Origin: a virus
IMG/VR virus record: IMGVR_UViG_3300043015_002491
Span: 32,001 to 96,000 of that record
Direction: 5' to 3' (one strand)
Length of the DNA: 64,000 nucleotides
Part shown: positions 355-31,232 of the stretch, piece by piece
How the letters are laid out: each line of letters starts with the position of its first letter
Numbering within the stretch: the first letter of the stretch is position 1
The notes under the pieces: model-generated
What the model saw: the letters and a program-made list of their open reading frames with translations, nothing else
Database searches by the model: none
What the model was told of the DNA's origin: nothing
Position numbers and translations under genes: made by a program

Positions 355-1470
355 TTACAATACGTTATACAACTTCTTATTGTCGTAATTCATCATATAC
401 TCTCTTACACTTTCTACCTTACCATCGTTTAATCCGAAGAATAAACCTGTGTAAGCCTTGTGTGTCTTACCAGCAACTCTGAATACTTCCATTGCATATC
501 TTTTCTTTTCCTTTGGAGTTATGTTCTTTGGTCTTAAGCCTTTCAACTCACCCCACATACCTTCCAACTCACCTATAAGGTTATTGTAACCCTCGTGAAG
601 CTTAAATATTTCTTCTCTTCTTTCTGGGAAAGTAGCGGAAAATTCCTCAATCTCATTAGACTTAACAACATCCATTATATTGTGTTCAGCTAATTTCCCC
701 TTCAAATGATGAACTGCCACATATGCTGGATTCTTTATCTTGATTCTATTGTGGTTTGCATCCACAACAACATAACCTTCCTCTGTGAATGGCATACCTT
801 CAAAAGTTCTCTTGATAGCACCAACATTGTCAACATTCATGTCAAAAGCCTTAACTAATGGCACACCTATTGATATTGCGGTCATTTCAAGGTCTTTCCA
901 AGATAACTCCTTAAGAGTCTTTCTATTTCTTACTGTCAAAAGGGAAACCTTAGATTCTCCGTGTGGAGTAACCACTATATTATATGGGGTCATTAACTCA
1001 AATACATATACATGGTCCTTATCCAACAAACAATCATTGAATGAATACTTGTTGTTTAGTGTATTCCAGAATAATTCATTGAAAGTAGTACCTAACTTGT
1101 TGTTTACTTCACCTTCCCCTTCAGCGGTTCCAGTTGTAGCTGCGAACCACTCTTTCTTATTCCAATCCCAGTATACTTGAATCATAGACCCATCTTCCTT
1201 AGTCAACACCTTAGCTGTATCCCAGTCAATTTTAGCAGCGTGACCTTCTTCAGCGTTGAAGAACTTGAAGAAAGATAAAGACATGATTTCCCAAGTATTC
1301 TTTTCAAGTATAAGCCCTCTGCACTCTTGCACAATAACCTCACCCATAGATGATTCTATTTGGTCATACTTGATAAGAACCTTGTCCTCATATTCCCTAG
1401 ACTTTAATTTAAAGTCAGTAAGCGTCTTAGCAAGTCCATTTTCTTTTATGTATTCTATTACTCTTAACAT
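355..1470 (-). CDS. T4 Rnl1-like ATP-dependent RNA ligase
   Basis: Motif I KEDGS, ECRGLIL, FFKFFN, FEL, EGYVV, RIKIK. Confidence 0.88.
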   Translation of the reverse strand: MLRVIEYIKENGLAKTLTDFKLKSREYEDKVLIKYDQIESSMGEVIVQECRGLILEKNTWEIMSLSFFKFFNAEEGHAAKIDWDTAKVLTKEDGSMIQVYWDWNKKEWFAATTGTAEGEGEVNNKLGTTFNELFWNTLNNKYSFNDCLLDKDHVYVFELMTPYNIVVTPHGESKVSLLTVRNRKTLKELSWKDLEMTAISIGVPLVKAFDMNVDNVGAIKRTFEGMPFTEEGYVVVDANHNRIKIKNPAYVAVHHLKGKLAEHNIMDVVKSNEIEEFSATFPERREEIFKLHEGYNNLIGELEGMWGELKGLRPKNITPKEKKRYAMEVFRVAGKTHKAYTGLFFGLNDGKVESVREYMMNYDNKKLYNVL

Positions 1471-2013: not shown

Positions 2014-2970
2014 TTAACCAAGTTTTTCTTCAGAAACTTTTCCAGAAAGATTTGGTCCATCTTCCCATTTACCCCAATACTTAATATCATTAGACATAAC
2101 TGGTTTACCACCCTTAGCTCTATTAACGGCTATTGTAATGTGTGGTTTTTCATTATCCGAATAATAACCCTCAACACCAACAGCTAAAGCCATATCAGAC
2201 ATACCAATACTAACAACCCTTAAGTTTACGGTCTTACCTAAGTCACCCTTAAGGTTTTCTGGTAACCCATTACCGAAGTTAATTGTCATGTGATGAGCAA
2301 TTATTTCCCAATCACCCCAAACATCACTTATTTTACTTCTAACCGCCTCTAGTAATTTAGTTCTAGATTTTTCATCCAATACAACACTTGCAAACATCTT
2401 TGGTTTATTTGAATACATAGGTTTTGCTTTAATAACTTTTTCAAGTGAAAGTGGTCCAACACTCTTATGAGATTGAATCATTGATTTAATTTTATCCAAT
2501 GGTACACCATGTGTATTCCTTTGCGCTAACTCTTCAGCAGAAAGACCGCCAGCACCTATATCAACAAATTTAATATTTTCATCAGCATAACCCATGTTTA
2601 ATGCTGCTTCAACATAATTCTTTGGTTCGTTAGCCTTGATGTTGGTATTGTCAACTATAACTGGTGACACACCCTTTTCCATAGCTTCCTTAGCCATCTT
2701 AAAGTTAAGTGAGTGCATCTTACTAAGTGGTGTGAAATCCTTATTAGAAATCATGTTTGAAAAGAATTCGTTATAATCACCTTGTGCTTCGATTCTGTCA
2801 TCAGTCGAGAATATGGCACCACCACCCTTAAGTTCTTTTGCTTTAGTCGATTTACCACTACCTGGTATCCCTCTCATCACAATAAGTTCTTGTTCTGGTT
2901 TTGACACTGTAACACCTAACGAGTTTTTCTCAACATTTTCTCTAAGTATTTTTCTTATATTTTCTTTCAT
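2014..2970 (-). CDS. Polynucleotide kinase (AAA_33 P-loop) fused to 2H cyclic phosphodiesterase
   Basis: GIPGSGKST Walker A, VIVDNTN, RNTHGVP; two HxT motifs (HHMTI, HITIA) in C-terminal domain. Confidence 0.85.
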   Translation of the reverse strand: MKENIRKILRENVEKNSLGVTVSKPEQELIVMRGIPGSGKSTKAKELKGGGAIFSTDDRIEAQGDYNEFFSNMISNKDFTPLSKMHSLNFKMAKEAMEKGVSPVIVDNTNIKANEPKNYVEAALNMGYADENIKFVDIGAGGLSAEELAQRNTHGVPLDKIKSMIQSHKSVGPLSLEKVIKAKPMYSNKPKMFASVVLDEKSRTKLLEAVRSKISDVWGDWEIIAHHMTINFGNGLPENLKGDLGKTVNLRVVSIGMSDMALAVGVEGYYSDNEKPHITIAVNRAKGGKPVMSNDIKYWGKWEDGPNLSGKVSEEKLG

Positions 2971-4752: not shown

Positions 4753-4789
4753 ATTATATAAATATATTGAAACACGCAAAAAGATGAAG

Positions 4790-4879
4790 CGGAAGACAAG
4801 GGAATTGAACCCTCGGACCGCTCAAGGCGGCCAACGCATTAGCAGTGCGCCCCGACTAACCAACATTCGGCTATCTTCC
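4790..4879 (-). tRNA. tRNA-Ser(GCT)
   Basis: GGAAGAT/GTCTTCC acceptor, GCGCA-CTGCTAA-TGCGT anticodon arm, long variable arm, G73; no encoded CCA. Confidence 0.92.
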
Positions 4880-4884
4880 AAGTA

Positions 4885-4951
4885 CAGGATGGTTTTTTTA
4901 CGTAATCAAATTAGAAGTTTGGTCGTTAAAAATATTTGCTGAACCCATCCT
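4885..4951 (-). ncRNA. Small RNA family member A (closing stem plus CAGCAA), with CT-TCT-AA anticodon-like loop
   Basis: AGGATGG...CCATCCT closing stem; motif shared with four other loci. Confidence 0.6.
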
Positions 4952-4955
4952 TTAG

Positions 4956-5028
4956 TACCCCTACAGGGATTCGAACCCCGATTCTCGGCTTAGAAGGCCG
5001 ATGTCCTATCCAATTGAACGATAGAGGC
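4956..5028 (-). tRNA. tRNA-Arg(TCT)
   Basis: TCGGC-CTTCTAA-GCCGA arm, GGTTCGAATCC T-arm. Confidence 0.93.
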
Positions 5029-5133
5029 ATTTTGGTGAGAGGCTTTGGGTTAGATAAACCTCAATATTACATGAGAGACCCCCTAGAATGCATCACCATT
5101 GTGTGAGAACGTCTAAACGTTCCCGACTTTTAG

Positions 5134-5208
5134 TACACCTAGAAAGAATCGAACTTTCAATCTCTCAGTTCGTAGCCGAGTGCTTTAAATCCGTTAAGCT
5201 ATAGGTGT
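5134..5208 (-). tRNA. tRNA-Arg(ACG)
   Basis: ACACCTA/TAGGTGT acceptor, CTCGG-CTACGAA-CTGAG arm. Confidence 0.92.
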
Positions 5209-5216
5209 ATATTAAG

Positions 5217-5286
5217 TACCGACTGTGAGGTTCGAACTCACTTAACCGTCCATATGAAGGACTGTTCTTTTCCACTAAGTGTCGGC
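5217..5286 (-). tRNA. Atypical tRNA-Met-like (CAT) with weak D-arm
   Basis: GCCGAC/GTCGGT acceptor, GTCC-TTCATAT-GGAC arm, GTGAG-TTCGAAC-CTCAC T-arm. Confidence 0.7.
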
Positions 5287-5317
5287 ATGTCGCTACTATT
5301 CGACCTATCAATATTTG

Positions 5318-5389
5318 CTCCTTGGGGGAATTTCGAAATCCCGACCTATCGCTTAACAGGCGATTGCTCTACCTCTGAGCTACCAAGGA
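5318..5389 (-). tRNA. tRNA-Asn(GTT)
   Basis: TCCTTGG/CCAAGGA acceptor, ATCGC-CTGTTAA-GCGAT arm; non-canonical T-arm GGGATTTCGAAATTCCC. Confidence 0.9.
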
Positions 5390-5446
5390 ATAATTGTTTA
5401 TAGTTGGCCAAAACTAGTAAATAAATTAACTTTTGGCTGATTATAG

Positions 5447-5519
5447 TGGGCCCACTGAGACTCGAACTCAGAACAACTGATTATGAGTCAGCCGTTTTAA
5501 CCACTTAAACTACAGGCCC
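5447..5519 (-). tRNA. tRNA-Ile2(CAT, lysidine type), Met not excluded
   Basis: GGGCCTG/TGGGCCC acceptor typical of Ile2, GCTGA-CTCATAA-TCAGT arm. Confidence 0.85.
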
Positions 5520-5523
5520 TTTG

Positions 5524-5613
5524 TACTGGTGGTGAGATTCGAACTCACGTTTGGTAACAACCTCAAGAACCGCTACGTTTCTCCAAGATATAAGCTTGGG
5601 ACGCTACACCAGC
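5524..5613 (-). tRNA. D-armless tRNA-like gene with TAT (Ile) anticodon and long extra arm
   Basis: GCTGGTG/CACCAGT acceptor, CCAAG-CTTATAT-CTTGG arm, canonical T-arm, no D stem. Confidence 0.6.
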
Positions 5614-5692
5614 ATTTGTAGAGTAGGTGGGGTATTCTCCCACAATAAAGGGTCATAGTCCAGCGGTTTGTAGTTTGAACCTACTATTCTAG

Positions 5693-5778
5693 TTGGTAGG
5701 GTGGGACTCGAACCCACATTGTGCTTTCGCACCCAGTGTATCAGACTGGTCCCTGTAAACCAATTCGGGTACCTACCA
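5693..5778 (-). tRNA. tRNA with GAT (Ile) anticodon in a long-variable-arm body
   Basis: TGGTAGG/CCTACCA acceptor, CCAGT-CTGATAC-ACTGG arm, GTGC-GAAA-GCAC variable arm. Confidence 0.85.
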
Positions 5779-5785
5779 ATATTAA

Positions 5786-5875
5786 TGGCGGAGAGAGTGG
5801 GACTCGAACCCACACACCTCTAGGGCCTACGGTTTTCAAGACCGTTGCAGTTAGACCTACTCTGCTTACCTCTCC
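5786..5875 (-). tRNA. tRNA-Ser(TGA)
   Basis: GGAGAGG acceptor, ACGGT-CTTGAAA-ACCGT arm, variable arm, GCCA end. Confidence 0.93.
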
Positions 5876-5883
5876 GAATAAAG

Positions 5884-5970
5884 TACCCCATTGTAGGATT
5901 CGAACCTACGGTCCCCTAAAGGGACACCCGTTACACACGGGTCGCATTAAGCCACTCTGCCAAATGGGTC
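5884..5970 (-). tRNA. Atypical tRNA with TGT (Thr) anticodon, class II body
   Basis: ACCCG-TGTGTAA-CGGGT arm (G at 33), GTCCC-TTTAG-GGGAC variable arm, canonical T-arm. Confidence 0.7.
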
Positions 5971-5976
5971 ACTTTG

Positions 5977-6049
5977 CACTGCGTTAGAGAATCGAACTCT
6001 ATCCATCCGAGGTTTTGGAGACCTGGCGCATACCATTATGCTACGCAGT
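5977..6049 (-). tRNA. tRNA-Trp(CCA)
   Basis: ACTGCGT/ACGCAGT acceptor, AGGT-CTCCAAA-ACCT arm. Confidence 0.87.
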
Positions 6050-6127
6050 ATGTGTTTCAATACGTCAAAGAACATATCGGTTTAAAAGCCGATATTATCA
6101 ATTATCTGTTATTAATCAGATAACCTT

Positions 6128-6203
6128 TGGGGTGCACGAGGAATTTCGAAATCCCGACCTTCCGAATCACAGTCGGATGCTCTGCCTCTGAGCTACGTAC
6201 ACC
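6128..6203 (-). tRNA. tRNA-His(GTG)
   Basis: G-1:C73, TCCGA-CTGTGAT-TCGGA arm, encoded CCA; T-arm GGGATTTCGAAATTCCT. Confidence 0.92.
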
Positions 6204-6574: not shown

Positions 6575-6606
6575 CAAATATATGATAAAAGTTTCAATTT
6601 GGCAAG
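6575..6606 (-). promoter_or_regulatory. Bacteroidota-type housekeeping promoter for leader and tRNA operon
   Basis: TTG-N20-TATATTTG matches -33/-7 TAnnTTTG consensus. Confidence 0.75.
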
Positions 6607-8749: not shown

Positions 8750-9910
8750 TTATAATAAATTTTTAAAATTTTCAATTTCCATTTTCTCAATAGCCTTACC
8801 CATTTCTGGTCCAGGCTTAACTCCTAACTCTCGTTGTACTTGGTCACCAGTTACACTCAATTCAAATTTAACAAAACTAGTGATTAACTCACCATTTAAC
8901 CTTGCAAGCATACCAAACTTAAGTATTTGAGTATCTTCAATACCAGACTTACTTTGTAACTTCTTAAACTTGTAAACTTGTTCTGGGTTTACGAATTGTT
9001 GTAAAGCAATTAGAAATGTAATAACCTTAACTTCTGATGAAGAATAAGTAAGCTTATTTAACTCCTTTGCAATAACATTAGGGTCATTATCCTTAAGTGT
9101 ATTAGCAATCACAATGATTGGGTCCTTATCGTTAACCCTATCTGTTTTACTAATCTTAAGACCTGGGAAAATTGATTCCCATAATTTGTAGTCATCAATA
9201 AGACTTAAGAAATGTTTAACATTCTTAGCCGTTTTAATCCCCTTTAATAACTCATCTCTGATTCTTTCTGGCGAAACACCTTCAAGACTGTTATCCTTCT
9301 TTAAAGCAGCATCTACAGCTGGGTCAAGCCCACTTCCGAATCTACCAGCGAATCTAATAGCTCTAAGTATTCTAAGTCTATCTTCACCGAATCTATCTTC
9401 AGCAGCACCAACAGTTCTAACAACACCATTCTTCAAGTCATCAATACCACCAACAAGGTCAACAACCTCACCAGTATCTATATCGTAAAATAATGCGTTA
9501 ATAGTTAAATCTCTTCTCTTAACATCGGTTTCAATATCTGTAAATCTAACAGCATCTGGTCTCCTACCACCAGATAGGTCTTCTCTAAATGTAGCAATTT
9601 CGTATTCATCTGAATCTGTGAATACATTGATTACACCAAAAGCTTTACCAGTTGGTAGTGTTTTAAACCCAGCATCAGCCATCATATCTTCAACCTTGTC
9701 TGGTACAGCATCAGTTGCGAGGTCATAATCTTTTGGTGTCTTTCCTAGTAATGCATCTCTAACAGCACCACCAACAACAAATAACTTATGTCCGTTTTTA
9801 ACGAAAACATCTTTAATTTGTCTAATATCATCTGGGATAGGCATGTTCATTTGCACCCTTTCTTCTCTTATGATATCTTCTCTAAGTATTTGTTTGATTT
9901 TATCTTTCAT
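8750..9910 (-). CDS. cca: CCA-adding tRNA nucleotidyltransferase (class II)
   Basis: VGGAVRD, DYD, RRDLTINAL, EDRLRILRAIRF, ERIRDEL motifs. Confidence 0.88.
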   Translation of the reverse strand: MKDKIKQILREDIIREERVQMNMPIPDDIRQIKDVFVKNGHKLFVVGGAVRDALLGKTPKDYDLATDAVPDKVEDMMADAGFKTLPTGKAFGVINVFTDSDEYEIATFREDLSGGRRPDAVRFTDIETDVKRRDLTINALFYDIDTGEVVDLVGGIDDLKNGVVRTVGAAEDRFGEDRLRILRAIRFAGRFGSGLDPAVDAALKKDNSLEGVSPERIRDELLKGIKTAKNVKHFLSLIDDYKLWESIFPGLKISKTDRVNDKDPIIVIANTLKDNDPNVIAKELNKLTYSSSEVKVITFLIALQQFVNPEQVYKFKKLQSKSGIEDTQILKFGMLARLNGELITSFVKFELSVTGDQVQRELGVKPGPEMGKAIEKMEIENFKNLL

Positions 9911-13640: not shown

Positions 13641-13838
13641 TTATTTTTCTTTTTTATCCCATTTAACCAATTCACCATCACATACATCATTGGCAAATTC
13701 TTCAGCAGTTATAAATGACCACTTATCATCACCTTCAGTTCTCTTATAAAAGATAGGTCCATCAATATATCTAATTTGATATTGTATCTTATCTTTCTTG
13801 CTAGATTCTCTAAGTAATATTTTTATTCTATCTTTCAT
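13641..13838 (-). CDS. Small hypothetical protein
   Basis: 65 aa, MKDRIKILLRE N-terminus, coupled to neighbours. Confidence 0.65.
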   Translation of the reverse strand: MKDRIKILLRESSKKDKIQYQIRYIDGPIFYKRTEGDDKWSFITAEEFANDVCDGELVKWDKKEK

Positions 13839-14623
13839 AACAGTTCCTCGTCTATTGTATGTTCATCATCATAAGCATTACTTGATAAATCACCAAGTTT
13901 TTCCATTATATCGTTCCTTCTAAGTAATTTAAATACAATATTCTCTACACTGTATTCACCACCCTCATCAAGCCCAGCTTGCCTCATCTTTCTAATTTTA
14001 TCTTTAAGTTTTTCAACTCTATCAACAACACTATTATTGTCTTTATCTTTTTCAATATCTTCAACAGATTTAACAATTTCTTTATATTTCTTTCTAATTG
14101 TTTCTTTATCTAATTTAACATCTTGTTTTTTTGGTTCTATAACCCATTCATCATCCATAATGGAATAAACACCTGTTGAATGGTGAGGTTGGTCTTCTGG
14201 TTGTAAATATAATTCAACTTCAAAACCCTTAATGGTGATATCATGGTCAGAATTCCACTTTCTAGTCTTAACGTCAAGTAAGTCTTTAACCATTTCTTTC
14301 TTATCACCTAATTCATTTATATCGAATATCAAATGAAGGTCAACATCTGAATACTTTGACCAATTAAAATTAGCTAATGAACCAGTCATTGTAATATCTA
14401 AGTATTCAAAATCTAAATCTAAAGATTCCCAATAATCTTCAGCAATCTTAATAAGTGTTTTTCTTATGTCTGGTTTTATCCTATCTTCTGTGTCCCATAT
14501 ATCTGGTTGGAGGGTGTCATTCATCTTAAATGCTGAAAAGTCTAATTCATCATTAAGTTCTGTAAGAAGTGACTCTATATGAAGACTCTCTTTTAATAAT
14601 CGTTTTACAATACATTTTCCCAT
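13835..14623 (-). CDS. Pol-beta superfamily nucleotidyltransferase
   Basis: TGS-x10-DVD motif, later VELY. Confidence 0.75.
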   Translation of the reverse strand: MGKCIVKRLLKESLHIESLLTELNDELDFSAFKMNDTLQPDIWDTEDRIKPDIRKTLIKIAEDYWESLDLDFEYLDITMTGSLANFNWSKYSDVDLHLIFDINELGDKKEMVKDLLDVKTRKWNSDHDITIKGFEVELYLQPEDQPHHSTGVYSIMDDEWVIEPKKQDVKLDKETIRKKYKEIVKSVEDIEKDKDNNSVVDRVEKLKDKIRKMRQAGLDEGGEYSVENIVFKLLRRNDIMEKLGDLSSNAYDDEHTIDEELL

Positions 14624-14647
14624 ACTAATAAATATGTTGCTATAAAC

Positions 14648-14680
14648 AAAAAAAGCCCTACAAAAGTAGAGCTTTTTTTT
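14648..14680. terminator. Bidirectional intrinsic terminator ending the ncRNA transcript
   Basis: AAAAAAAGCCCTACAAAAGTAGAGCTTTTTTTT. Confidence 0.8.
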
Positions 14681-14687
14681 AATTAGA

Positions 14688-15175
14688 TGGGGGAAATCAA
14701 AAGGATTCTTCTTAACACCTTTAACATTTGGATTAATTACGGATTCGAACCGTTATTACCTTACTACCGATACTCCTAAGCGGTTAACTTAAGATTCTTC
14801 TCCACCATTTGACCTTGAAGCGGTCTTCCTACCTAGTACCGTGCCTTAACCCACTAATCAAAGGTTTATTAGGCTACAAGATGGGATTTATTTATTCACC
14901 CATAAGTAAGGTTACAAGTAGATATTTACATCTAGCTGTACCATTCAAATGCTCTAACGATAACTAGATTGTTAGCAACAATCATTGGCTACTCAGTCGC
15001 TTACTCCCCGAAGGAAGCTTGCACCTACGTTTTCACTATAATTGCTGTAGTTTACTCTCGGAAGATTTTCCATTGAGTATCCCACCACAGGAATCGTTAA
15101 CTCTTATCACCCTTGTAAATAGTGATTATTCGAGCATAATTATACATGCAAACTGTACAGGTTCACATGCCCCCA
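14688..15175 (-). ncRNA. Candidate large structured ncRNA (~490 nt)
   Basis: No credible ORF, raised GC, TGGGGG/CCCCCA terminal pairing, many hairpins including ACGG-TTCGAAT-CCGT; promoter upstream and terminator downstream. Confidence 0.7.
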
Positions 15176-15189
15176 ATATTTTTAGTTAT

Positions 15190-15314
15190 CAGAATAGTGA
15201 TTTAGAATGATTAACATGGTCTAGACACATGGTTGTTTTTTGTTACTCAACAAGAGGACAATTTCTAAAACCTCTCTCTCTCTTTCTTAAAGAACTAATC
15301 GCTGTAACTATTCT
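15190..15314 (-). ncRNA. Small RNA family member B
   Basis: AGAATAG-TTACAGCGA...CTATTCT-G. Confidence 0.55.
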
Positions 15315-15360
15315 TTTATAACTTTTCTTCAATGAACGTTTGTTAATTACTTAACTGATA

Positions 15361-15391
15361 CAAATATATCACATTATTTATCATTTGTCAA
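15361..15391 (-). promoter_or_regulatory. Host-type promoter for ncRNA operon
   Basis: TTG-N20-TATATTTG, boxA-like GTTCATTGAA at 15328-15337. Confidence 0.7.
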
Positions 15392-15571
15392 GTGTTTTGG
15401 TAAATATTTTTCAAATTCCTCAAGCCTAGCACCAAGAGTACTACCATTAGCTTCGAAAAATACCGAATCACCAATTACTCTAACATTACTAATATCCCAA
15501 TGAACTATATTACTTAAATTCATTGCTATCTCACCCTCATTGGGTAACCTTATCCACATATACTCATCCAT
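15374..15571 (-). CDS. Small hypothetical protein (likely start MDEYMW)
   Basis: ORF track 15374-15619; the upstream part overlaps a terminator-like hairpin. Confidence 0.5.
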   Translation of the reverse strand: MDEYMWIRLPNEGEIAMNLSNIVHWDISNVRVIGDSVFFEANGSTLGARLEEFEKYLPKHLTNDK

Positions 15572-15661
15572 AATACAATTATAATTAATTACAAATAAAT
15601 GTAAACAATAAAACCCCACAATTGTGGGGTTTTATTGAGTAATAATTAACTTTTATTATTT

Positions 15662-17023
15662 TTATTTACCAGTTAATTGTTTTGCCATTGAAGCACCAAT
15701 TAATGATTCTAATGGTGTACCACCCTTACTATCACCCATAATCATTGTTTCTGGGAATTTGATTTTAGATAACTCAGCAGCAACACCAATTTTAGTTTCT
15801 TTCTCAATTTGAGCTCTCTCTTGTGGTGTTAAACCAGCTGACACTAATCTTTGGTTCTCATAAGCTTGTGCATCTGCCGCTACTTTCTTCTTCTTAGAGT
15901 TTAATTTCTCAGTTTCTAAAGCAATTTCAGCTAACTTACGATTAGTTTCTTCTCGTTTTAATTGAGTTTCAATAGCGATTAAGGCTTTAACTTGCTCTTT
16001 CTCTTGTGTTACCCTTTCAGCAGCCTTATCTCTCTCCCCTTCAGCTACAATTCTTTGTTGTGCAGCCTTAGCGGTTTCAATCTTTTGTAATTCAATAGAT
16101 TTTTGCGCTGAAATATCCCTTGAATCTTCTAACTTCTTACGGAATTTTTCTTCTAATACTACTTGGTCTACAATAACTTGAGATACTATAATTTTGTTTT
16201 TTGTAATATCGTGTGCTATTCTAATTGGTAACCCAGTTTTCTTATCTATACGCTTATTAACTTCGTAACGTGTTTGAACTTCTTTAATTGTTCTACCTTC
16301 CTCATTTTGAATTACTGATTCAATCGTATCAGTGTGTTCAATTTTATCTACCGCATAACCACCAGATTTTAATTGTTCATCAAGCGTTGCTCTAAAGTTA
16401 GATGCGTCTCCAGATACATAATCTTCAGCGGTGAACATATAACCAGTGTTAATTACTTGTTCTTTAACTGTTGGGATAAGCGTATTATTAATTAAATTCT
16501 TTGGATGTATAATTTCTCTAACAATTTGACCAAATGATTCGTCATCTTGTGGTAACTGCATACGTACAGATAATTTAACACTACCAACTACTTTATCGAT
16601 AAATCTAATTGGAATACCACCTAATATTGGTCCTTCAATACCTTCAGTAGATTCACCATCACTAACCACCTTAATATCACTAAATGATTCCCATTCTTGA
16701 ACTCGTGAAAATGGCATCACTAATTTCCAACCTTGACTATATTCATAACTAACTTGACCTGTTGGGCTAACTATGTAATATTGATGCCCTGGTCTAGCGT
16801 AGAAGAATGCTGATGTTGACATCATTAATAACACTCCAATAACACCAACGATAAGAGATTTCTTACCAGTCCAGTTTGTTAAAAATTTTGGATGTGCTGG
16901 TAAAGTTTTTGTACCACCATATCCGTTTGGTACACTTTCAGATTCCGTTCTCAAATTCATAAATTTTGGTACAACGTATAATGCGATAGCTACCAATAAT
17001 AATAAAATTCCTAATACTGTCAT
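15662..17023 (-). CDS. SPFH/band-7 family membrane protein
   Basis: Two N-terminal TM segments, SPFH-like core, AE-rich coiled coil. Confidence 0.78.
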   Translation of the reverse strand: MTVLGILLLLVAIALYVVPKFMNLRTESESVPNGYGGTKTLPAHPKFLTNWTGKKSLIVGVIGVLLMMSTSAFFYARPGHQYYIVSPTGQVSYEYSQGWKLVMPFSRVQEWESFSDIKVVSDGESTEGIEGPILGGIPIRFIDKVVGSVKLSVRMQLPQDDESFGQIVREIIHPKNLINNTLIPTVKEQVINTGYMFTAEDYVSGDASNFRATLDEQLKSGGYAVDKIEHTDTIESVIQNEEGRTIKEVQTRYEVNKRIDKKTGLPIRIAHDITKNKIIVSQVIVDQVVLEEKFRKKLEDSRDISAQKSIELQKIETAKAAQQRIVAEGERDKAAERVTQEKEQVKALIAIETQLKREETNRKLAEIALETEKLNSKKKKVAADAQAYENQRLVSAGLTPQERAQIEKETKIGVAAELSKIKFPETMIMGDSKGGTPLESLIGASMAKQLTGK

Positions 17024-18052: not shown

Positions 18053-18727
18053 ATGAAACCTTTATACACTGAAACCGAATTTGAAAATGCAAAATCAACT
18101 GATAAATTACCTTGCGAATGTTACCATTGTGGTAAGAGATTCACGGCAATGAAAAAATCAATAAAGCAAGAAATCAAACATAAAAGAGGTAGAATAAAAT
18201 TCTGTTCTCAAACTTGTAACTCAGCAAATCAAAAAACTAGTAAACTGGTTAAATGTGATAACTGCGGAACAGAGTTCTTGAAAAAACCTAACCAAATCAC
18301 TAAATCTAAGAATAACTTCTGTTCTAGGTCTTGTAACACATCTTATAATAACAAGAATAAGACTTGGGGTACTAGACGTTCCAAACTTGAAATTTGGTTA
18401 GAAGAACAATTAAGCATTCTATACCCAAATTTACATATTGATTATAATAAACCAAATGCGATTGGGTCTGAATTAGATATTCACATACCTTCTCTTAACT
18501 TAGCAATCGAATTAAATGGTATATTTCACTATGAACCTATATATGGTGTAGATAAACTACAAAAGATTCAAGAGAATGACCATTCTAAATCAAAAGCATG
18601 CCATGATAATCAAATCGATTTATGTGTTATCGATACTTCTGGTCAGAAATACTTTAAACCAAAGTCATCACAGAAGTATCTTGATATCATCACTAATATT
18701 CTCAATGAACGCTTATCAACTTCCTAG
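18053..18727 (+). CDS. Putative free-standing homing endonuclease (Cys-rich Zn repeats plus PD-(D/E)xK/Vsr-like domain)
   Basis: CxxC...FCS repeats; ELDIHIPSLNLAIELNGIFHY; opposite strand to neighbours. Confidence 0.72.
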   Translation: MKPLYTETEFENAKSTDKLPCECYHCGKRFTAMKKSIKQEIKHKRGRIKFCSQTCNSANQKTSKLVKCDNCGTEFLKKPNQITKSKNNFCSRSCNTSYNNKNKTWGTRRSKLEIWLEEQLSILYPNLHIDYNKPNAIGSELDIHIPSLNLAIELNGIFHYEPIYGVDKLQKIQENDHSKSKACHDNQIDLCVIDTSGQKYFKPKSSQKYLDIITNILNERLSTS

Positions 18728-18783
18728 TCACCAAAAATGGTGTGCAACAGTCACTACGTGCAAGTGAGTTGATTTCGACTGTC

Positions 18784-18855
18784 TAGCGGGGGAGGGAATC
18801 GAACCCCCGACCTCAAGGTTATGAGCCTTGCGAGCTACCTCTGCTCTACCCCGCA
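18784..18855 (-). tRNA. tRNA-Met(CAT), initiator-like
   Basis: TGCGGGGTAGAGCAG start with unpaired 1:72, CAAGG-CTCATAA-CCTTG arm. Confidence 0.9.
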
Positions 18856-18862
18856 ATATTAG

Positions 18863-18916
18863 TTCTTCGACTAGGACTTTCACCTAAAGATACTACTTAC
18901 GTTAGTATTCGAAGAA
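18863..18916 (-). ncRNA. Mini tRNA-like three-way junction
   Basis: TTCTTCGA/TCGAAGAA stem, ATACTA-7nt-TAGTAT hairpin, TAGG-TGAAAGT-CCTA hairpin. Confidence 0.5.
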
Positions 18917-18962
18917 TTGTACTTAAACGTTATTCCAAAATTCAGTACCAATATTTTAATAT

Positions 18963-19022
18963 CAGAATGGTATCTTTACAATAAATATTCAAAATTTAAC
19001 TTTAACTTGCTGTAACCATTCT
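18963..19022 (-). ncRNA. Small RNA family member D
   Basis: AGAATGG-TTACAGCAA...CCATTCT-G. Confidence 0.6.
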
Positions 19023-19106
19023 TTTCATTAGGATTAGTTTTTAACACTATTTATATAACACTTCAATAAAACAACAAATGAATTTATTACGCTAACCCTA
19101 TACTTG

Positions 19107-19187
19107 TGGGTCTTCTAGGAATCACACCTAGTATTAACATTACAAGGAGGTGAAGTGAGTGTAACGTCAATATATTTATTAAGACCC
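19107..19187 (-). ncRNA. tRNA-like RNA with anti-Shine-Dalgarno loop
   Basis: GGGTCTT/AAGACCC-A acceptor, CTAGG-TGTGATT-CCTAG T-like arm, 13-bp stem capped by CTCACTTCACCTCCT. Confidence 0.65.
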
Positions 19188-19247
19188 TTAATATCTTTTT
19201 TTTTTGTCTTTCAAGATGTCAATGAACTAACGTTCTTTTTATATATA

Positions 19248-19278
19248 CAAATATATAGATATATTTTTGTTTTGTCAA
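19248..19278 (-). promoter_or_regulatory. Host-type promoter for second RNA operon
   Basis: TTG-N20-TATATTTG; boxA-like GTTCATTGACA at 19217-19227. Confidence 0.7.
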
Positions 19279-19285
19279 GTTTTTT

Positions 19286-20117: not shown

Positions 20118-20561
20118 TTACGAAATAGAAACAACTTCTAATTCAAAAACTAAGTCTTTTCCAGCTAATGGATGATTAGCATCCAAAACAACTGTATCTT
20201 CTTTTACTTCTTTAACTGTTACAACCATCGGACCTTGAGGACCGTCAGCTTGAAGTAACTCACCTTCTTTAACTGTTGGTGGTACATATTGTTTTTCAAC
20301 TTCTTGAAGTCTATCACTTAATATAGGTCCATAAGCCTTATCTGAAGTGATTGTAACTGTTTTAGTTTCACCTTCTTTCATTCCTTGTAATGCTTCTTCG
20401 AAACCTGGGATAACTAACCCTTTTCCTAATTGCACTTCTAATGGTTCTTTATCTTGAAAATCTGTACCCTCTACAGCCTTAGAAGAATCAAAAACTTCAT
20501 CGTTAGTAAATTTACCTGTGTAATGCACCTTAACTGTGCTGTCTTCTTTAATAATTGACAT
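20118..20561 (-). CDS. FKBP-type peptidyl-prolyl isomerase (SlyD/SlpA-like)
   Basis: VKVHYTG, FDSS, IPGFEEAL, AYG, DANHPLAGKDLVF. Confidence 0.92.
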   Translation of the reverse strand: MSIIKEDSTVKVHYTGKFTNDEVFDSSKAVEGTDFQDKEPLEVQLGKGLVIPGFEEALQGMKEGETKTVTITSDKAYGPILSDRLQEVEKQYVPPTVKEGELLQADGPQGPMVVTVKEVKEDTVVLDANHPLAGKDLVFELEVVSIS

Positions 20562-20701
20562 AATAACTTTTTTTTTTTATTTTTAATTATGGTACAAATA
20601 TACCACCTTTATTTTAAATTGTCAAGTAAAAACGAAAAAACCCTCACTAGGAGGGTTTCTTAATTTCCATCTGGCGAAATCAGAATGGAATGCTTGAGCA
20701 G

Positions 20702-21070
20702 TGGAGTTGCTCGGATTCGAACCGAGGTCTTACTTACTCATAAAGAGCTTTCTACATGCTTATCTGGTTTCTAATTCCAGCAAAGTTTAACAGTTCCCTT
20801 ATTTTAGTAGTTCGTTTTACTGATAACTAATCTTCTACCCTTATTTTAACACCTTTGGTTGGTCGTTCCTGTGGGTTTCCCCAGTGCATTACTCTGTTAG
20901 GCGAATGCTACCTCTCCTACACCTACTTCTACAGAAGCAGTGTCAAGGAAGTTTTCAGCGATGTCAAATTCGTTTCCATCTAAAAATTTGATAGGTAATT
21001 AAAGTGTTTCCAATCTAACACTGCATGCTTACTAATCACGACTATAAGCAATCAATAGCCAGTCAACCCC
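20702..21070 (-). ncRNA. ssrA: tmRNA
   Basis: GGGGTTG/CAACTCC-A acceptor with G3-U70, GCATG boxes, T-arm GGTTCGAATCC; tag frame 20977-20897 GNEFDIAENFLDTASVEVGVEEVAFA. Confidence 0.9.
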
Positions 21071-21208
21071 ATAATATTAAAGAACGTATCTTATAAATAT
21101 ACACAAATATATTAAAAGTTTTTTTAAATGTCAAGTAAAATTAAAAAAAAATGAGGAAATCTTTCGAAATCCCCATTTTAAAAATCGGAGTGTTAATTTT
21201 GTTATTTG

Positions 21209-21679: not shown

Positions 21680-22384
21680 TTATTTCTTGTTTGTTACAAT
21701 ACCATCAATGATACCATACTCTAGAGCTTCGTCAGCTGTAAGCCAATTATCTCTATTACAATCTGCTAATACTTGTGCGACATCCTTACCACAATAATCA
21801 GCAAGCATACCAAATAATTTATCATTATACTTGATAGCTTCAGCAATACTAATTCTCATATCTTCTACGTGACCTTGAGCCCCAGCAGATACTTGATGTA
21901 ACATTACCTTAGAACTTGGTAGAGAATATCTTTTACCCTTAGTTCCAGCACCTAATAGGATTGAACCCATCGATGCGGCCATACCAGTATTAATTGTTTG
22001 AATATCTGAACTAACATAATTCATAACATCAACCATTGATAAACCAGATTTAACTGAACCACCTGGTGAGTCAACATGCATTGTAATCGTCTTACCTGGT
22101 TCTAAGTTATCTAAGAACATTAACTGTGCTTGAACAACTGTACTCATTTGGTCATTAACTGGACCAGCAACCCAAAGAATCCTATCCATCATAAGTCTTG
22201 AGAAGATATCCATTTGAGTTACTCTCATTTCTCTTTCTTCCAAGATGTATGGTGTAAGACTTCCACTTACTTGAGTGTTATTGTATATAGTAGCTTGTAA
22301 GTTCTCCCAATAATGGAATTGAATACTACTAATCCCCATATGCTTTGTAGCATAATCTTTAAATTCACTATAAAAATCTAACAT
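21680..22384 (-). CDS. clpP: ATP-dependent Clp protease proteolytic subunit (likely start MLDFY)
   Basis: DIFSRLMMDRI, SPGGSV, AASMG, MLHQ, RDNWL. Confidence 0.93.
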   Translation of the reverse strand: MLDFYSEFKDYATKHMGISSIQFHYWENLQATIYNNTQVSGSLTPYILEEREMRVTQMDIFSRLMMDRILWVAGPVNDQMSTVVQAQLMFLDNLEPGKTITMHVDSPGGSVKSGLSMVDVMNYVSSDIQTINTGMAASMGSILLGAGTKGKRYSLPSSKVMLHQVSAGAQGHVEDMRISIAEAIKYNDKLFGMLADYCGKDVAQVLADCNRDNWLTADEALEYGIIDGIVTNKK

Positions 22385-22385
22385 A

Positions 22386-22640
22386 TTATTCTTCGTTTGT
22401 ATAAATAAAGACTGGGGTATATTCACCCATCCAAGACCCTATTATATTATATTGGAAATATTCCATAGCTTCTTCATATGTCATATCATCACGTTCAACT
22501 AGTATTTCCAAAATCTTTTCTACACTATAAGCAGCAACTGGACCTAAATTAATCCTTTCAGCAACACCTATGATGGCTTCATCGAAACCATCACAGATTA
22601 ATGCTTCTTCGTTGTATTCTGCAACTTCTTCTGGAGTCAT
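22386..22640 (-). CDS. Phage hypothetical protein
   Basis: DGFDEAIIG...EEAMEYFQYNIIGSWMGEYTP. Confidence 0.75.
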   Translation of the reverse strand: MTPEEVAEYNEEALICDGFDEAIIGVAERINLGPVAAYSVEKILEILVERDDMTYEEAMEYFQYNIIGSWMGEYTPVFIYTNEE

Positions 22641-23346: not shown

Positions 23347-24372
23347 TTATTTTTTAATATTTTTTAATTTTTCTATTACCTCTTTTTCTGAATCACTTAA
23401 CTCAGTTGGCATTTCGATATCTAAAATAATCATCATATCACCTCTAATATTTGTATTATATTTAAACAAACCTTTATTAACTACCCTTAAATTATCACCA
23501 ATTTTGCTATATTCTGGTACTGTAACCCTAATTTTACCACCGTCAATAGTTGGTACTTCCACTTTATCACCTAAGACTAACTGAGGATAACTTAATTTAA
23601 GGTTATACTTCAAGTTATCACCATTTCTAATAAAATTATCATTGTTATTGACAAATAATTTAATTAGAAGTCTACCAGGTGTGCCTTGTTTAACACCATG
23701 ACCCATACCAACATATTCCATTGTATCACCATCCTTAACACCCTTTGGGATTGTCACTTCAACCGTTTCTTCTTTATTAATTGTACCATTACCATGACAT
23801 GTACCACATATATTTTCAACAACTGAACCACTACCACCGCATTGGTCACAATCGATAACTTGTCTCATTTGACCTAGAGGTGTGTTAATAACATTCATTA
23901 TACTACCATTACCTTTACACTTAGGACAAGTTTTTTTACCCGTTCCACCATCAGAATTACAAGTCATACATGGCGCATTTCTCCTATATTTAAATTTCTT
24001 AGTGACACCGTTAAAAACTTCTTCTAATGAAATTCTTACATTTATAACTAAATCATGACCTCGACTTTGCTCTCGTTTAGTAAACGGATTCCTACCACCA
24101 CCAAAACCAAATTCACGCATTATATCTTCCATAGATTGACTACCAAATGGATTACCACCCCTAGGGTCAGCTGAACCAAACCTATCATAATTAGTTCTTT
24201 TGTTAGAATCACTTAATACATCATAAGCTTCAGCAATATCTTTAAATTTTTCTTCACCATCTGGGTTTACGTCTGGGTGATACTTTTTAGATAACTTTCT
24301 ATAAGCTTTTTTAATGTCCGATTCTGTGGCGTTTTTTTCAACACCCAATATTCCATAATAATCTTTACTCAT
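23347..24372 (-). CDS. dnaJ: DnaJ chaperone
   Basis: J domain with HPD, four CxxCxGxG-type repeats, C-terminal domain. Confidence 0.93.
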
Positions 24373-26909: not shown

Positions 26910-28361
26910 TTAAACACGAATTGCTTCGTATCTTTCTGAACTAATAATATTCATCATCATTCCGTAAGGAGTGATATCATTACCAGCTAATAAGCTTGTT
27001 AATAACGCTGGGCTGAAACCAGACACCAACGCAGTACCTTGCTTATCGAATTGTACTGGGTTATTGTCATTTCTTGATTGAATGTTCCAGTATACAACCT
27101 TTGGCATTGTGTACCCAGCATCTGCATACATGTTTTCAATCATTCTTTGAGCAGTTGGATTCCAATCAGAATCACCTCTCCAACCATCGCCAGTAGCTTG
27201 GTTGAATTCCATATCCGAAAGGATAAGAATCATAGTTGGCATTTCTGACTCAGCAACATTACTAGCTTTTGCTTTTTGAAGCAATACCTTGAATGTCTTT
27301 TCTAAGTCTGTACTACCACCCCATTCTGCTCTAGATAGTTGGTTGAATCTGTCTCTTAAATCACCCTTTAAGTATTGTAACTTTGGGTTAGAGTGGAAAG
27401 TGAAGAATGCATCCTTGAATGGTCCTTCATTTCTCTCAGAGATATATAAACCTAATGAGATAGCTACATCCATACAGCTGATATTTGCGTTACCGCCAGC
27501 TGACACACCCATTGAGCCAGAAACGTCTACCACTGGTAAAACTCTTTCTTTATTACCTTCCATGTAGTTAGGTAAAGCTTTCCATTGTTCAACAGCACCA
27601 TCAGCTGAACCATATTTCAAGTTCTTAGTAATGTCGTATGGATATACAGCACCAGCATTAATCTTAGTTTCACCCTTTGAAAGTGAATCCAAATATGCTT
27701 GGAATCTGCTACCATCATTCTTAGAGAATGCCTTCATGTAATCAGACATTGCCTTAGATGGTACGTGTTCGTATGTAATCGCACCGAATTCTCTAGCACA
27801 CATTAATTGCTCAACAGTGTTAGATAACTCAGAAAGCATCTTTCTATACGCCTTTGGTGTTAACCCTAAGTGTTTTCTTAAGGTACTAGCCCATCTCTTC
27901 TTTTCCCTATTCTTAGTGTTACCTCTTGGCATCCACTTAGCCGCAAGTCCATTACCATCTTTTAACGCTTTTTCAATTTCGTTAAGAGCTTCTTTCTCTA
28001 ATTTAGTACCAACTAATATTAAATAGTCATCATACCTACCGTACTCAGCAATAAGTCCTATGTTCTTCTTAAGTGCTGAAGTTTTAGTATTAGCAAGATA
28101 AGTTAAAATATCTCTGAAAGTACCTCTTTCACCAGCTCCACCTCTAACGTCTCTAGCCCAGAATAAAATCTTCATAGCTGTTAACGAATCTTCAGCGAAA
28201 GCTTTAGAAAATGCATTAATCTTTCTTTGTTTATCTTGCCCTCTTAAAGCACCAATTTGGAAAAATAGGTCTACACAAGAATTAAGTGTAGTTGAATTTG
28301 TTGTCATACCATTTTCAGTAACAGTATCTTCAGTTCTTAAAGCGTCAATTAAATTTGCCAT
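26910..28361 (-). CDS. DUF2828-like TROVE/Ro60-related protein with C-terminal vWA domain
   Basis: TENG, RDVRGGAGER, AKWMPR, DVSGSM MIDAS, STDL, LSDMEF, WN, SGFSP. Confidence 0.82.
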   Translation of the reverse strand: MANLIDALRTEDTVTENGMTTNSTTLNSCVDLFFQIGALRGQDKQRKINAFSKAFAEDSLTAMKILFWARDVRGGAGERGTFRDILTYLANTKTSALKKNIGLIAEYGRYDDYLILVGTKLEKEALNEIEKALKDGNGLAAKWMPRGNTKNREKKRWASTLRKHLGLTPKAYRKMLSELSNTVEQLMCAREFGAITYEHVPSKAMSDYMKAFSKNDGSRFQAYLDSLSKGETKINAGAVYPYDITKNLKYGSADGAVEQWKALPNYMEGNKERVLPVVDVSGSMGVSAGGNANISCMDVAISLGLYISERNEGPFKDAFFTFHSNPKLQYLKGDLRDRFNQLSRAEWGGSTDLEKTFKVLLQKAKASNVAESEMPTMILILSDMEFNQATGDGWRGDSDWNPTAQRMIENMYADAGYTMPKVVYWNIQSRNDNNPVQFDKQGTALVSGFSPALLTSLLAGNDITPYGMMMNIISSERYEAIRV

Positions 28362-28446
28362 AGTGTTAAAAATTTGAATTGTTAATTAATTTTAGTGTTC
28401 ACAAATATATAACCTTTTTTTCCTTTTGTCAACTTTTTTTTTAAAA

Positions 28447-29741: not shown

Positions 29742-30172
29742 ATTCTATTTATTTTACCCTTTAACCCTGGAAACAGTGGTTCTGGTAATTCATTTTTATC
29801 AAACCAACCCCAATCCAGATTCTCATGGTCTAATGTAGGTATAAATTCGCTATTTGTCAAGCCTTCGTAATAATGAAACTCTAAATTTTTACTCTTATGG
29901 TAGATTTTATCTATAAATTTATAAGAAATAATATTTGGGTTTATCTGCATTTCTTCATTAACTTCTCTTTTAAGCCCTTCTAATACATCTTCACCGTCTT
30001 CAATACCACCACTAACTAATGACCATGTATTAGGTTCATCACCAAAGTCATTTCTAAGTAATAATAGGATTCTACCAGTCGAGTTACACTTAACCAATAC
30101 TCCAGCCGCAGTTCTTTTGTTTTCGTTTTCCATTAACATATATCTAACTTTATTTTTAATTAAATCTTTCAT
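29738..30172 (-). CDS. Nudix hydrolase
   Basis: GGIEDGEDVLEGLKREVNEE Nudix box. Confidence 0.88.
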   Translation of the reverse strand: MKDLIKNKVRYMLMENENKRTAAGVLVKCNSTGRILLLLRNDFGDEPNTWSLVSGGIEDGEDVLEGLKREVNEEMQINPNIISYKFIDKIYHKSKNLEFHYYEGLTNSEFIPTLDHENLDWGWFDKNELPEPLFPGLKGKINRI

Positions 30173-30231
30173 ATTATATAAATATTGACTTATTGGATGA
30201 TAAACGTTATCTTTAAAGAAAAATTAAAGTT

Positions 30232-30558
30232 ATGGTAAATTTATTTATTTTCGTATTAGTTGCTTATGGGATTAGTAACATTTTAATCTATGGTTCAATC
30301 TTTGAAGGTTGGAGAACCTTACTATCTAAATTAGGGACTGGCGATAAGAGTCTTTATAAACTATTCACTTGCATGATGTGTTTACCTACTTGGGTAGGGT
30401 TTGGTTTATCTTATTTGTTACAATCACAAGGGATTGATACACCTATGACCACTTATGGTATTGAGAATTTATACTTATCTATATTTTTAGATGGTGTATT
30501 AAGTAGTGGAGCTGTTTATGCGTTTAACGTATTAGTTGAATACTTTGAGGGTGAATAA
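30232..30558 (+). CDS. Membrane protein with CxxC (DUF1360-like)
   Basis: Three hydrophobic segments, LFTCMMCLPTW. Confidence 0.65.
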   Translation: MVNLFIFVLVAYGISNILIYGSIFEGWRTLLSKLGTGDKSLYKLFTCMMCLPTWVGFGLSYLLQSQGIDTPMTTYGIENLYLSIFLDGVLSSGAVYAFNVLVEYFEGE

Positions 30559-30587
30559 TAAAAAAGCCCCAATTAAGGGGCTCTTTA

Positions 30588-31232
30588 TTAATAACTTCCA
30601 ATTTTTTCTTCTTCACATACTGGACAAACTTCATCTGGTCCAGAACAATTACATGTTATATTTGGTACATCGAATTCTTCTAATTCAACCTTACCATTCT
30701 TAGGTGGTAATTCAATATCTTGACCTTTAACATTAGTGATTTTAATTTCACCATTTACCTTTTCAGTTGTTTTTTTAACTTCTTCTGGGTTAGCTGGTGG
30801 TGGTGGTAGTGTTTCTTCCACATTAACATCATCTTCTAACTCAAAGTTATCCATATCACCTAACGATGGCATAACACCTGGTTTATTAAAAGTAAATTTA
30901 AGTTCTTGTAATTCGTGTAAAGTTTTTTCTTTAAATAATTTTTTAAGTTCTTCTACCTTTTGTTTAAGTAATTCATATTTCTTTTCTCTTTCAATATTAA
31001 CGCTAATAACACCTTCAACATAATCTAATAAGTCGTCAATTGTTACACCTTCCTTTTCAGTGAAGAACATATAGTAATTTTGAGATTCATCAACTAACTC
31101 TTTTTTAATCACATCACTATTTGGTACCGTCCACCCTTCTTTAAAGACAGCATCAACAATTTGCATACCTTGGATGTATCTAATACCAACAATGTGGGGT
31201 TGTAATGAATCTAATCTTTCTTGTATTGACAT
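30588..31232 (-). CDS. Hypothetical protein
   Basis: 214 aa, C-terminal Cys cluster. Confidence 0.7.
   Translation of the reverse strand: MSIQERLDSLQPHIVGIRYIQGMQIVDAVFKEGWTVPNSDVIKKELVDESQNYYMFFTEKEGVTIDDLLDYVEGVISVNIEREKKYELLKQKVEELKKLFKEKTLHELQELKFTFNKPGVMPSLGDMDNFELEDDVNVEETLPPPPANPEEVKKTTEKVNGEIKITNVKGQDIELPPKNGKVELEEFDVPNITCNCSGPDEVCPVCEEEKIGSY

Follow-up and report, generated by a model that had tools for sequence, protein, structure and literature searches.

An interval of approximately 490 nucleotides (nt) in the DNA of an uncultured giant phage from estuary water raises the question of what is encoded there, if not a protein. The interval lies within a 64,000-nt stretch (referred to here as the window), namely positions 32,001 to 96,000 of the IMG/VR virus record IMGVR_UViG_3300043015_002491, and an earlier note made from the sequence alone had proposed that it encodes a structured non-coding RNA with its own promoter, boxA and terminator. 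The record comprises 122,509 nt at a CheckV completeness of approximately 35%, hence the source is a jumbo phage, and its DNA is AT-rich (GC 0.309). The element is encoded on the minus strand, as are the nearby genes, running in window coordinates from 15175 (UGGGGGCAU...) to 14688 (...UUUCCCCCA), and is present as a single copy in its own record. Here we show that the element is a real structured RNA of approximately 22 helices, that it occurs as a precise 492-nt unit in metatranscriptome contigs, and that this RNA is probably cut out at exact ends and circularised.

The GC content of the unit (0.388) exceeds that of the 500 nt on each side (0.296 and 0.278), in agreement with the earlier note, whilst its description of the interval as free of open reading frames (ORFs) does not hold strictly, as five ORFs overlap the element, all of them short at 30-63 amino acids (aa). 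The pattern of substitution between homologues across this stretch is nevertheless of the paired-RNA type. Homologues were retrieved by using the downstream gene, which encodes a 262-aa protein, as the search anchor; this yielded four loci in viral contigs and eight in a metagenome scan, and the leader and element were then compared by BLAST with the eight metagenome loci. Locus L025 matched the entire leader and element region (81% identity over 779 nt), L026 matched the element at 76% over 554 nt, with its leader matched separately, and L023 matched the final 76 nt of the element only, its contig beginning inside the element. There are consequently three full-length copies (window, L025 and L026), with identities of 76-81% and one common fold.

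RNAalifold analysis of the three full copies returned 141 pairs in approximately 22 helices. Changes on both sides with pairing retained were found at 36 of these pairs, compared with 13.8±2.7 in column shuffles, none of 500 of which reached 36, and with 1-8 in six slid controls; the proportion of paired cells was 96.7% in the alignment as opposed to 38.6-45.1% in the slid controls. The structure used in this test came from the same alignment, a bias in its favour, though the margin is very large. A fourth natural variant, found in RNA sequencing run X18, has changes at nine paired positions, eight of which stay paired, with the partner of the ninth lying beyond the contig. The minimum free energy of the single sequence is -148.4 kcal/mol (z = -3.12), and none of 100 shuffles was as stable. 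The existence of one fold in three homologues, its covariation and the compensated changes of the X18 variant together establish the element as a structured RNA, and the collection of homologues and assessment of covariation that had been suggested as a check thus gave strong support.

The unit, at 14686-15177, has its 5' end (AUUGGGGG...) at 15177 and its 3' end (...CCCCCAUC) at 14686. It is closed by a six-pair G/C helix, P1, identified from the alignment and covariation fold, in which the 5' strand UGGGG (15171-15175), continued by G15170, pairs with the 3' strand CCCCA (14688-14692), and which is invariant in all three homologues. The P2 hairpin (15144-15170) is stacked directly on P1; five of its ten pairs change on both sides, the loose end of the X18 variant contig shows further compensating changes, and its loop carries an invariant palindromic GUACA. 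In the consensus fold, the 5' half (helices 3-12, 14955-15135) begins with a GCUC/GAGU hairpin containing a GAAUAA/UAAG internal loop, followed by a long-range helix UAACGAU/AUCGUUA that encloses two hairpins, the first with a GUGGUG loop, and a long arm whose tip is hypervariable. The 3' half (helices 13-22, 14723-14953) consists of a long-range helix AGCAUUUG/CAAAUGUU around one hairpin and the helix ACCUUACU/AGUAAGGU, within which lie an AUGGG/CCCAU hairpin, an AAUAAAC/UUAAGG hairpin, a three-hairpin junction closed by CGGUACU/AGUAUCG, and a T-loop hairpin. The last of these, CGG-UUCGAAU-CCG (14740-14752), fits the tRNA T-arm consensus; its stem is invariant in all three homologues, with one loop change in L026. 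A CUUAAG/CUUAGG hairpin at 14775-14793 is, on inspection of the alignment, kept through compensating changes, and the final hairpin of the unit, AAAGG-UGUUAAGAAGAAU-CCUUU (14700-14722), is near-invariant in four sequences, including the partial L023. The palindrome GUAC occurs in two invariant copies, located in the P2 loop and in a joining strand, which could pair intra- or intermolecularly.

Most of the hairpins named in the earlier note recur in this fold. The TGGGGG/CCCCCA closing helix corresponds to P1, and ATGGG...CCCAT, TAGAT-GTAAAT-ATCTA and the T-loop CGG-TTCGAAT-CCG are all present, whilst CTTCC-TTCG-GGGAG falls in a variable hairpin tip whose helix is retained. For GATTGTT-GCT-AACAATC, our own reading of the alignment retains the local hairpin, but RNAalifold favours a long-range alternative. 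GACC-GCTTCAA-GGTC was not conserved, the homologues favouring GGUA-GGAA-(G/U)ACC and CUUC...GAAG instead.

We then considered the form in which this RNA occurs. At least part of an 851-nt query is contained in 20 of 24 listed sequencing runs, nine of which are RNA libraries from nine coded studies of estuary, freshwater and marine water, holding 0.49-0.68 of the sampled query words. The Logan contigs of four of the nine RNA runs (X8, X10, X18 and X19) were compared with 14300-15700, and the share values of the other runs were not used as evidence, nor was the lack of contig cover over the flanking protein genes. The transcript that the earlier note had called for was found in these metatranscriptome contigs, three of the four runs defining the 492-nt unit. 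In X10, a 494-nt contig spans exactly 14686-15177. In X19, a 522-nt contig is circularly permuted, in that its first 439 letters correspond to 14739-15177 and its last 83 to 14686-14768, such that 15177 is joined back to 14686 without any intervening or shared letters; its length (492 + 30) is that expected for a closed 492-nt path with 31-letter words. In X18, the variant contig, which has 27 other letters and three gaps over 14686-14892 (207 nt), has a loose end past 14686 that reads the other end of the unit and finishes in the C-run of P1, whilst a second contig is plainly linear (14691-15100). Lastly, a 596-nt contig of X8 (14691-15286) joins the element to the last 109 nt of the leader.

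The joint therefore lies at the identical two positions in two runs of different studies, outright in X19 and as a loose end in X18. As the same joint is found in two runs, with a contig of unit length in a third, and as the DNA holds one copy only, between unique flanks, the contigs are most simply read as a circular RNA of 492 nt accompanied by some uncut precursor, and we regard its circularity as quite likely. An open frame running endlessly around the circle, of the kind seen in retron-like Neo concatemers, was rejected, since stops occur in all six circular frames (5-17 each).

No promoter was identified directly in front of the element. The sole conserved promoter lies approximately 180 nt upstream, at 15361-15392 on the minus strand, is shared with a conserved leader, and is invariant in all four loci compared (window, L025, L026 and L003), and a promoter of the element's own is not supported. 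It is sigma-70-like with a TG-extended -10 (CTTGACA-N17-TATATTTG; motif scan, 11/12 with TG), and would place the transcription start near 15355. A motif scan allowing at most one mismatch located six sites of this promoter class in the window, all on the minus strand, compared with 0.06 expected (6575-6606, 15361-15392, 19248-19279, 20595-20626, 21104-21135 and 28402-28433). They lie upstream of a tRNA array (ten tRNAs), this RNA and tRNA-Met, and just upstream of the transfer-messenger RNA (tmRNA), with two before protein genes. Given that sites precede the tmRNA, tRNA-Met, the tRNA array and this RNA, this promoter type serves the stable-RNA genes of the phage, although not exclusively. The -10 part is also compatible with the TAnnTTTG form of Bacteroidota.

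The leader (15178-15355, minus strand) is approximately 180 nt in length and forms two hairpins, GAGAGG/CCUCUU and CAUG/CAUG, with compensatory changes seen on inspection of the alignment. Its counterparts, of approximately 150-180 nt, are found at 3001-3151 in L003, about 1640-1817 in L025 and 1410-1553 in L026, and it occurs both together with the 492-nt element and in its absence; in L003, which lacks the element, the leader would constitute an independent small RNA that ends at the terminator. In the window the leader is co-transcribed with the element, as the X8 contig crosses the border between the two. The proposed boxA did not survive comparison, the GTTCTTTAAGAA-like words lying in a non-conserved part of the leader and not being kept in the three other loci. 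The terminator did: a hairpin AGCUCUAC-UUUU-GUAGGGCU followed by a U-tract (14647-14673, minus strand), recognised from sequence and fold and unlisted by a simple terminator scan, is kept in all homologues, and also in L022, which lacks the RNA. An A-tract precedes the hairpin, so the terminator could act in both directions.

Comparison of related loci demonstrated that the 492-nt element is an accessory module, cleanly missing at the same site in close relatives. In L003, whose neighbour protein is 82% identical, the promoter, leader and terminator are present with nothing at the place of the element. In L022 (92% identical), the upstream 81-aa ORF is followed directly by the terminator, without promoter, leader or element. 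L026 carries an extra module of approximately 150 nt (about 1554-1705) between leader and element, with its own closing stem AGUUGAA/UUCAACU and inner helices, for which there was no Rfam match at E≤0.1; this module may be another excisable RNA cassette.

The phage encodes a set of RNA repair and maturation proteins. A T4 Rnl1-type RNA ligase gene (355-1470, minus strand; PF09511, 61.9 bits; phrog_562, 142 bits) lies beside a gene for a P-loop protein with a weak polynucleotide-kinase match (2014-2970, minus strand; phrog_505, 44 bits), and a CCA-adding enzyme is encoded at 8750-9910 on the same strand. A T4 Rnl2-type ligase (PF09414, 59-60 bits; phrog_548, 229 bits) is encoded just outside the window, at 30033-30620 of the phage's own record (locus L038), where its gene adjoins that of a metallophosphoesterase. 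The invariant terminal helix P1 and the two types of ligase gene in the record are features of ligase-circularised non-coding RNAs.

We propose that the element is a free-standing gene of this jumbo phage, transcribed from the stable-RNA promoter type as a precursor of approximately 700 nt consisting of leader, 492-nt domain and terminator. P1 would bring the two ends of the domain together, the RNA would be cut two nucleotides outside P1 on each strand, and the ends would be sealed into a covalently closed circle, to which the head-to-tail contigs point. Each end of the unit does lie two bases beyond P1, and the two face each other directly, so that sealing would cap P1 with a four-base loop. 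The likeliest sealer would be one of the phage's own ATP-dependent RNA ligases, either that of Rnl1 type, whose gene has the polynucleotide-kinase-like neighbour, or that of Rnl2 type. T4 Pnkp and Rnl1 carry out tRNA repair, in which the nicked anticodon loop is sealed. The present case is alike in having an Rnl1-type ligase with a kinase-like gene, and a break in a small helix-capping loop, but the ligase would act on an RNA encoded by the phage itself and would yield a circle in place of a mended tRNA. Circularisation of C/D-box sRNAs is described as requiring an archaeal ATP-dependent RNA ligase (PMC9014305), and T4 Rnl2 is described as closing RNAs into rings if the precursor holds the ends together (PMC7229815). 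As in the archaeal ligase-circularised RNAs (PMC9014305, PMC2577357), so far as these accounts describe them, a terminal helix would here hold the ends whilst the ring is sealed, and the phage likewise encodes a ligase from that superfamily (PF09414); the differences are that the encoding genome here is that of a bacterial virus, that the RNA is approximately ten times the length of a C/D-box sRNA, and that the pairing of ligase and substrate is inferred. An excised, ligase-sealed, 492-nt circular structural RNA, representing a new family and carried as an accessory module, is the reading that we favour, with moderate confidence.

Known RNA families were considered as alternatives to a new one. 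An Infernal cmscan search of Rfam, as the earlier note had recommended, returned nine rows in the window at curated thresholds, one tmRNA and eight tRNAs, and nothing at the element locus; ARAGORN likewise found 11 tRNAs and the tmRNA in the window but no tRNA or tmRNA at the element. At E≤10 over 14500-15400 there were 16 rows, most of them on the terminator, and no ROOL, GOLLD, RNase P, group I/II intron, tmRNA or small-ribozyme row. This agrees with the earlier note, in which RNase P and group II intron hallmarks were not found; of the two classes suggested for the RNA, a divergent ROOL or GOLLD member was not detectable, and a new class is compatible with the empty result at curated thresholds. 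A tmRNA was rejected, in that the phage tmRNA lies elsewhere according to both ARAGORN and Rfam, and approximately 47 nt and a hairpin separate the T-loop hairpin from the 3' strand of P1. A group I intron was also rejected: besides the missing Rfam row, the 3' end of the unit is a C (14686) and not a G, although a U is present before the 5' cut. The same search held no hammerhead, twister, pistol, hatchet, hairpin or HDV-like row, and a viroid-like or ribozyme circular RNA was rejected accordingly; such RNAs share with this one a circular-contig signature in metatranscriptomes and a branched fold, but here there is a single copy in phage DNA, no known self-cleaving ribozyme and stops in every frame.

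ROOL and GOLLD (PMC5737381; 10.1101/2024.12.08.627333), as characterised in those sources, resemble this RNA in being large, ornate, stand-alone phage RNAs from tRNA-gene regions, and differ in that their models give no match here, in that this RNA is smaller than GOLLD, and in lineage and habitat. The region is rich in phage tRNA genes (tRNA array at 4789-6202, tmRNA at 20699-21070), but the nearest tRNA gene (18783-18856) is 3.6 kb from the element. A head-to-tail form is not known for either ROOL or GOLLD.

The one meaningful row at E≤10, and the only Rfam resemblance of this RNA, was manA (RF01745), at 27.6 bits relative to a cut-off of 55.2 (E 5.2e-5), with the whole model placed on 14690-14904; the bona fide manA of phage P-SSM2 scores 181.6 bits with the same model. 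Searched with RF01745, the phage's own record returned no row, which we ascribe to loss at the first filter of the search tool. By inspection, the 3' half follows a manA-like order of a hairpin, a hairpin with the AAUAAAC/UUAAGG internal loop, a three-hairpin junction, a hairpin, a GG...AAUCC hairpin and a CCCCC strand, and its counterparts in P-SSM2 manA also include an ACC-containing loop and a C-rich 3' strand. The 5' half, by inspection only, repeats the GAAUAA/UAAG hairpin and has the GUGGUG loop of manA, whilst R1, a covariance model built from the 3' half of the element, scored 1.4 and -3.5 bits there, on the corresponding hairpins. In the Rfam alignment, the helices that the manA model calls the closing stem and the fourth hairpin are mispaired here. 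Both RNAs are phage-borne, promoter-driven and multi-branched, with a G-rich/C-rich closing stem; the present RNA differs in its length (492 nt versus about 190), in a closing stem that encloses two halves, in a tRNA-type T-loop, in its head-to-tail form, and in not lying in a 5' untranslated region (UTR), a terminator preceding the next gene. It was in 5' UTRs that manA was first put forward as a candidate riboswitch (Weinberg et al. 2010, PMC2864571), and a recent preprint describes manA RNAs building decamers and a 60-mer cage via kissing loops in vitro (10.64898/2026.07.01.735769), its main text being without the word 'circular'. A distant, expanded, two-core relationship to manA is conceivable, although we think it the less probable outcome, and the element may best be described as a new family that could be related to manA in this way.

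A number of observations weigh against the reading that we favour. The link to manA is weak, being matched in one of the three homologues only: the homologous place in L025 gave no manA row (11.6 bits elsewhere), L026 gave none at E≤10, and the 5' half had no manA row in Rfam. Reciprocally, R1 misses the bona fide manA of P-SSM2 with default filters, and with filters off scores it at 8.8 bits, out of register. As these formal tests fail (cut-off, homologues, 5' half and reciprocal search with R1), the RNA was not filed under manA. Searches of phage records, viral contigs and genome contigs found no homologue beyond one narrow phage lineage. The RNA evidence consists of Logan contigs of RNA runs alone, and contigs cannot prove covalent closure; the joint could stem from a strain with tandem DNA copies, or from reverse transcriptase changing templates on an RNA that is abundant and has fixed ends. 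The X8 contig enters the leader (to 15286), which means that an uncut form or contaminating DNA is also present. The link between ligase and RNA, for either ligase, is that both belong to the same genome. RtcB was not found in the 122.5-kb fragment, though with the record approximately 35% complete this negative says little.

Foremost among the other explanations is a stable linear non-coding RNA of approximately 490 nt, trimmed to the base of P1, in which case the joints would be artefacts, produced by template switching or in de Bruijn assembly, or would reflect two tandem DNA copies in some strain. The plain linear pieces in X8 and in the second contig of X18 would suit such an RNA, as would the fact that the joint is read outright in the X19 contig only, to which X18 adds a loose end. 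However, the mean depth of X19 is only 7.9, at which a rare artefact would hardly have been assembled, and the length of its contig, the unit plus 30, is characteristic of a closed path at k = 31. The same joint recurs in a variant sequence from another study and habitat, and the window, L025 and L026 each hold a single DNA copy with unique flanks; we therefore consider a linear RNA possible but rather unlikely. A riboswitch-like cis-regulatory leader controlling the downstream nucleotidyltransferase-like gene (13835-14623) would accord with the position of the RNA upstream of that gene on the same strand, and with the proposal of manA as a 5' UTR riboswitch candidate. It is at odds with the occurrence of the RNA as a discrete unit, and with the absence of such an RNA upstream of the homologous genes of cyanophages, Lak phages and Maribacter phages. 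Since a full terminator precedes the gene, and is unchanged in L022 where the RNA is missing, the RNA is not placed as a riboswitch, and we give this explanation almost no credence.

A third explanation is a mobile RNA that resembles an intron and represents a new class, in which a ribozyme would excise itself from the leader-terminator transcript and circularise without protein; its DNA copies would be gained and lost cleanly at one site in related phages, with L003 as the empty allele. The borders of the DNA insertion or deletion fall within a few bases of the ends of the RNA unit, L003 having leader and terminator with nothing between whilst in L025 and L026 this very point is occupied by the element; the contigs present the excised form as a circle, there is a U before the 5' cut, and approximately 22 conserved helices far exceed what a ligase substrate needs. 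Against this, the Rfam search at E≤10 detected neither a group I or group II intron nor any family of small self-cleaving ribozymes, the unit ends in C in place of the group I G and has no GUGYG start, and none of the four RNA runs contained a contig with the flanks joined minus the unit. There is also no homing endonuclease or reverse transcriptase inside the unit, and the loss of the leader as well in L022, along with the further 150-nt module in L026, looks like cassette shuffling. Self-excision thus appears improbable.

If the 492-nt RNA is a ligase-sealed circle, it would be an exonuclease-resistant structural RNA. By analogy with manA, ROOL and GOLLD in vitro, the circle may form RNA-only multimers via its invariant palindromic GUAC loops; alternatively, it may act as a tRNA-like decoy of a tRNA-binding host factor through its T-loop. 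Any specific function is doubtful at this stage, a stable structural RNA that multimerises or acts as a decoy being our best guess. A Ro60-like partner was also considered and is not supported, the DUF2828/DUF7788 protein (26910-28361) being without a solved relative.

Large ornate phage RNAs such as ROOL, GOLLD and manA are among the least understood RNAs, and the present element adds to them a covariation-supported member of approximately 490 nt, along with evidence of exact excision and probable ring closure in natural communities. The literature searched contained no account of a DNA phage that encodes a large, structured and circular RNA; Lee et al. include a dsDNA-phage segment with a pistol ribozyme among circular candidates. 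With two RNA ligases and the RNA in one genome, the biogenesis is directly testable. Were phage ligases of the tRNA-repair type also to make circular structural RNAs, their known role would be widened, and there would be a natural route to stable RNA rings in bacteria.

The family so far comprises the window, L025, L026, the partial L023 and the variants in sequencing runs, all of one narrow lineage. A blastn search of the locus against 50,697 phage records gave no match, and BLAST against four huge-phage records and the L003 contig gave chance-level matches only, mostly on the T-loop. No homologue was found with R1 in five phage records, three cyanophages and five further viral contigs, or by exact-motif scans of viral contigs and genome contigs, and the 453-aa neighbour protein as query retrieved no related locus. 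The L003 contig was the sole match in a search with the leader motif. A 435-nt gap in L004/L006 without ORFs of at least 80 aa was rejected as not homologous, having a shorter minus-strand frame with, by reading, the look of a small lipoprotein.

Several further features of the region were noted. The 262-aa protein encoded downstream (13835-14623, minus strand) is nucleotidyltransferase-like, matching a poly(A)-polymerase-like palm weakly (at 19.9 bits, which is below the cut-off), and is a member of phrog_36119, with homologues in huge uncultured phages, Lak megaphages, Maribacter phages and cyanophages; the corresponding region of L003 and L027 is the C-terminal part of a longer ORF (515 aa in L003). 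The sole plus-strand gene nearby (18053-18727) adjoins tRNA-Met and encodes a protein with a zinc-finger N-terminal part and a C-terminal part that, by eye, resembles a Vsr/DUF559-type endonuclease, and which may be a free-standing homing endonuclease. The phage tmRNA (20699-21070, minus strand; 84.2 bits) has an unusual predicted tag, GNEFDIAENFLDTASVEVGVGEVAFA, and in its vicinity the ORF sequences alone suggest an FKBP-type isomerase (20118-20561) and a ClpP-like protease (21680-22426), whilst Pfam identifies a DnaJ gene at 23347-24372. Between a promoter of the same class and tRNA-Met, approximately 390 nt (18857-19247, minus strand) are without ORFs of at least 75 aa and hold a GGGUCUU/AAGACCC-closed element and leader-like words; this stretch may contain further small RNAs.

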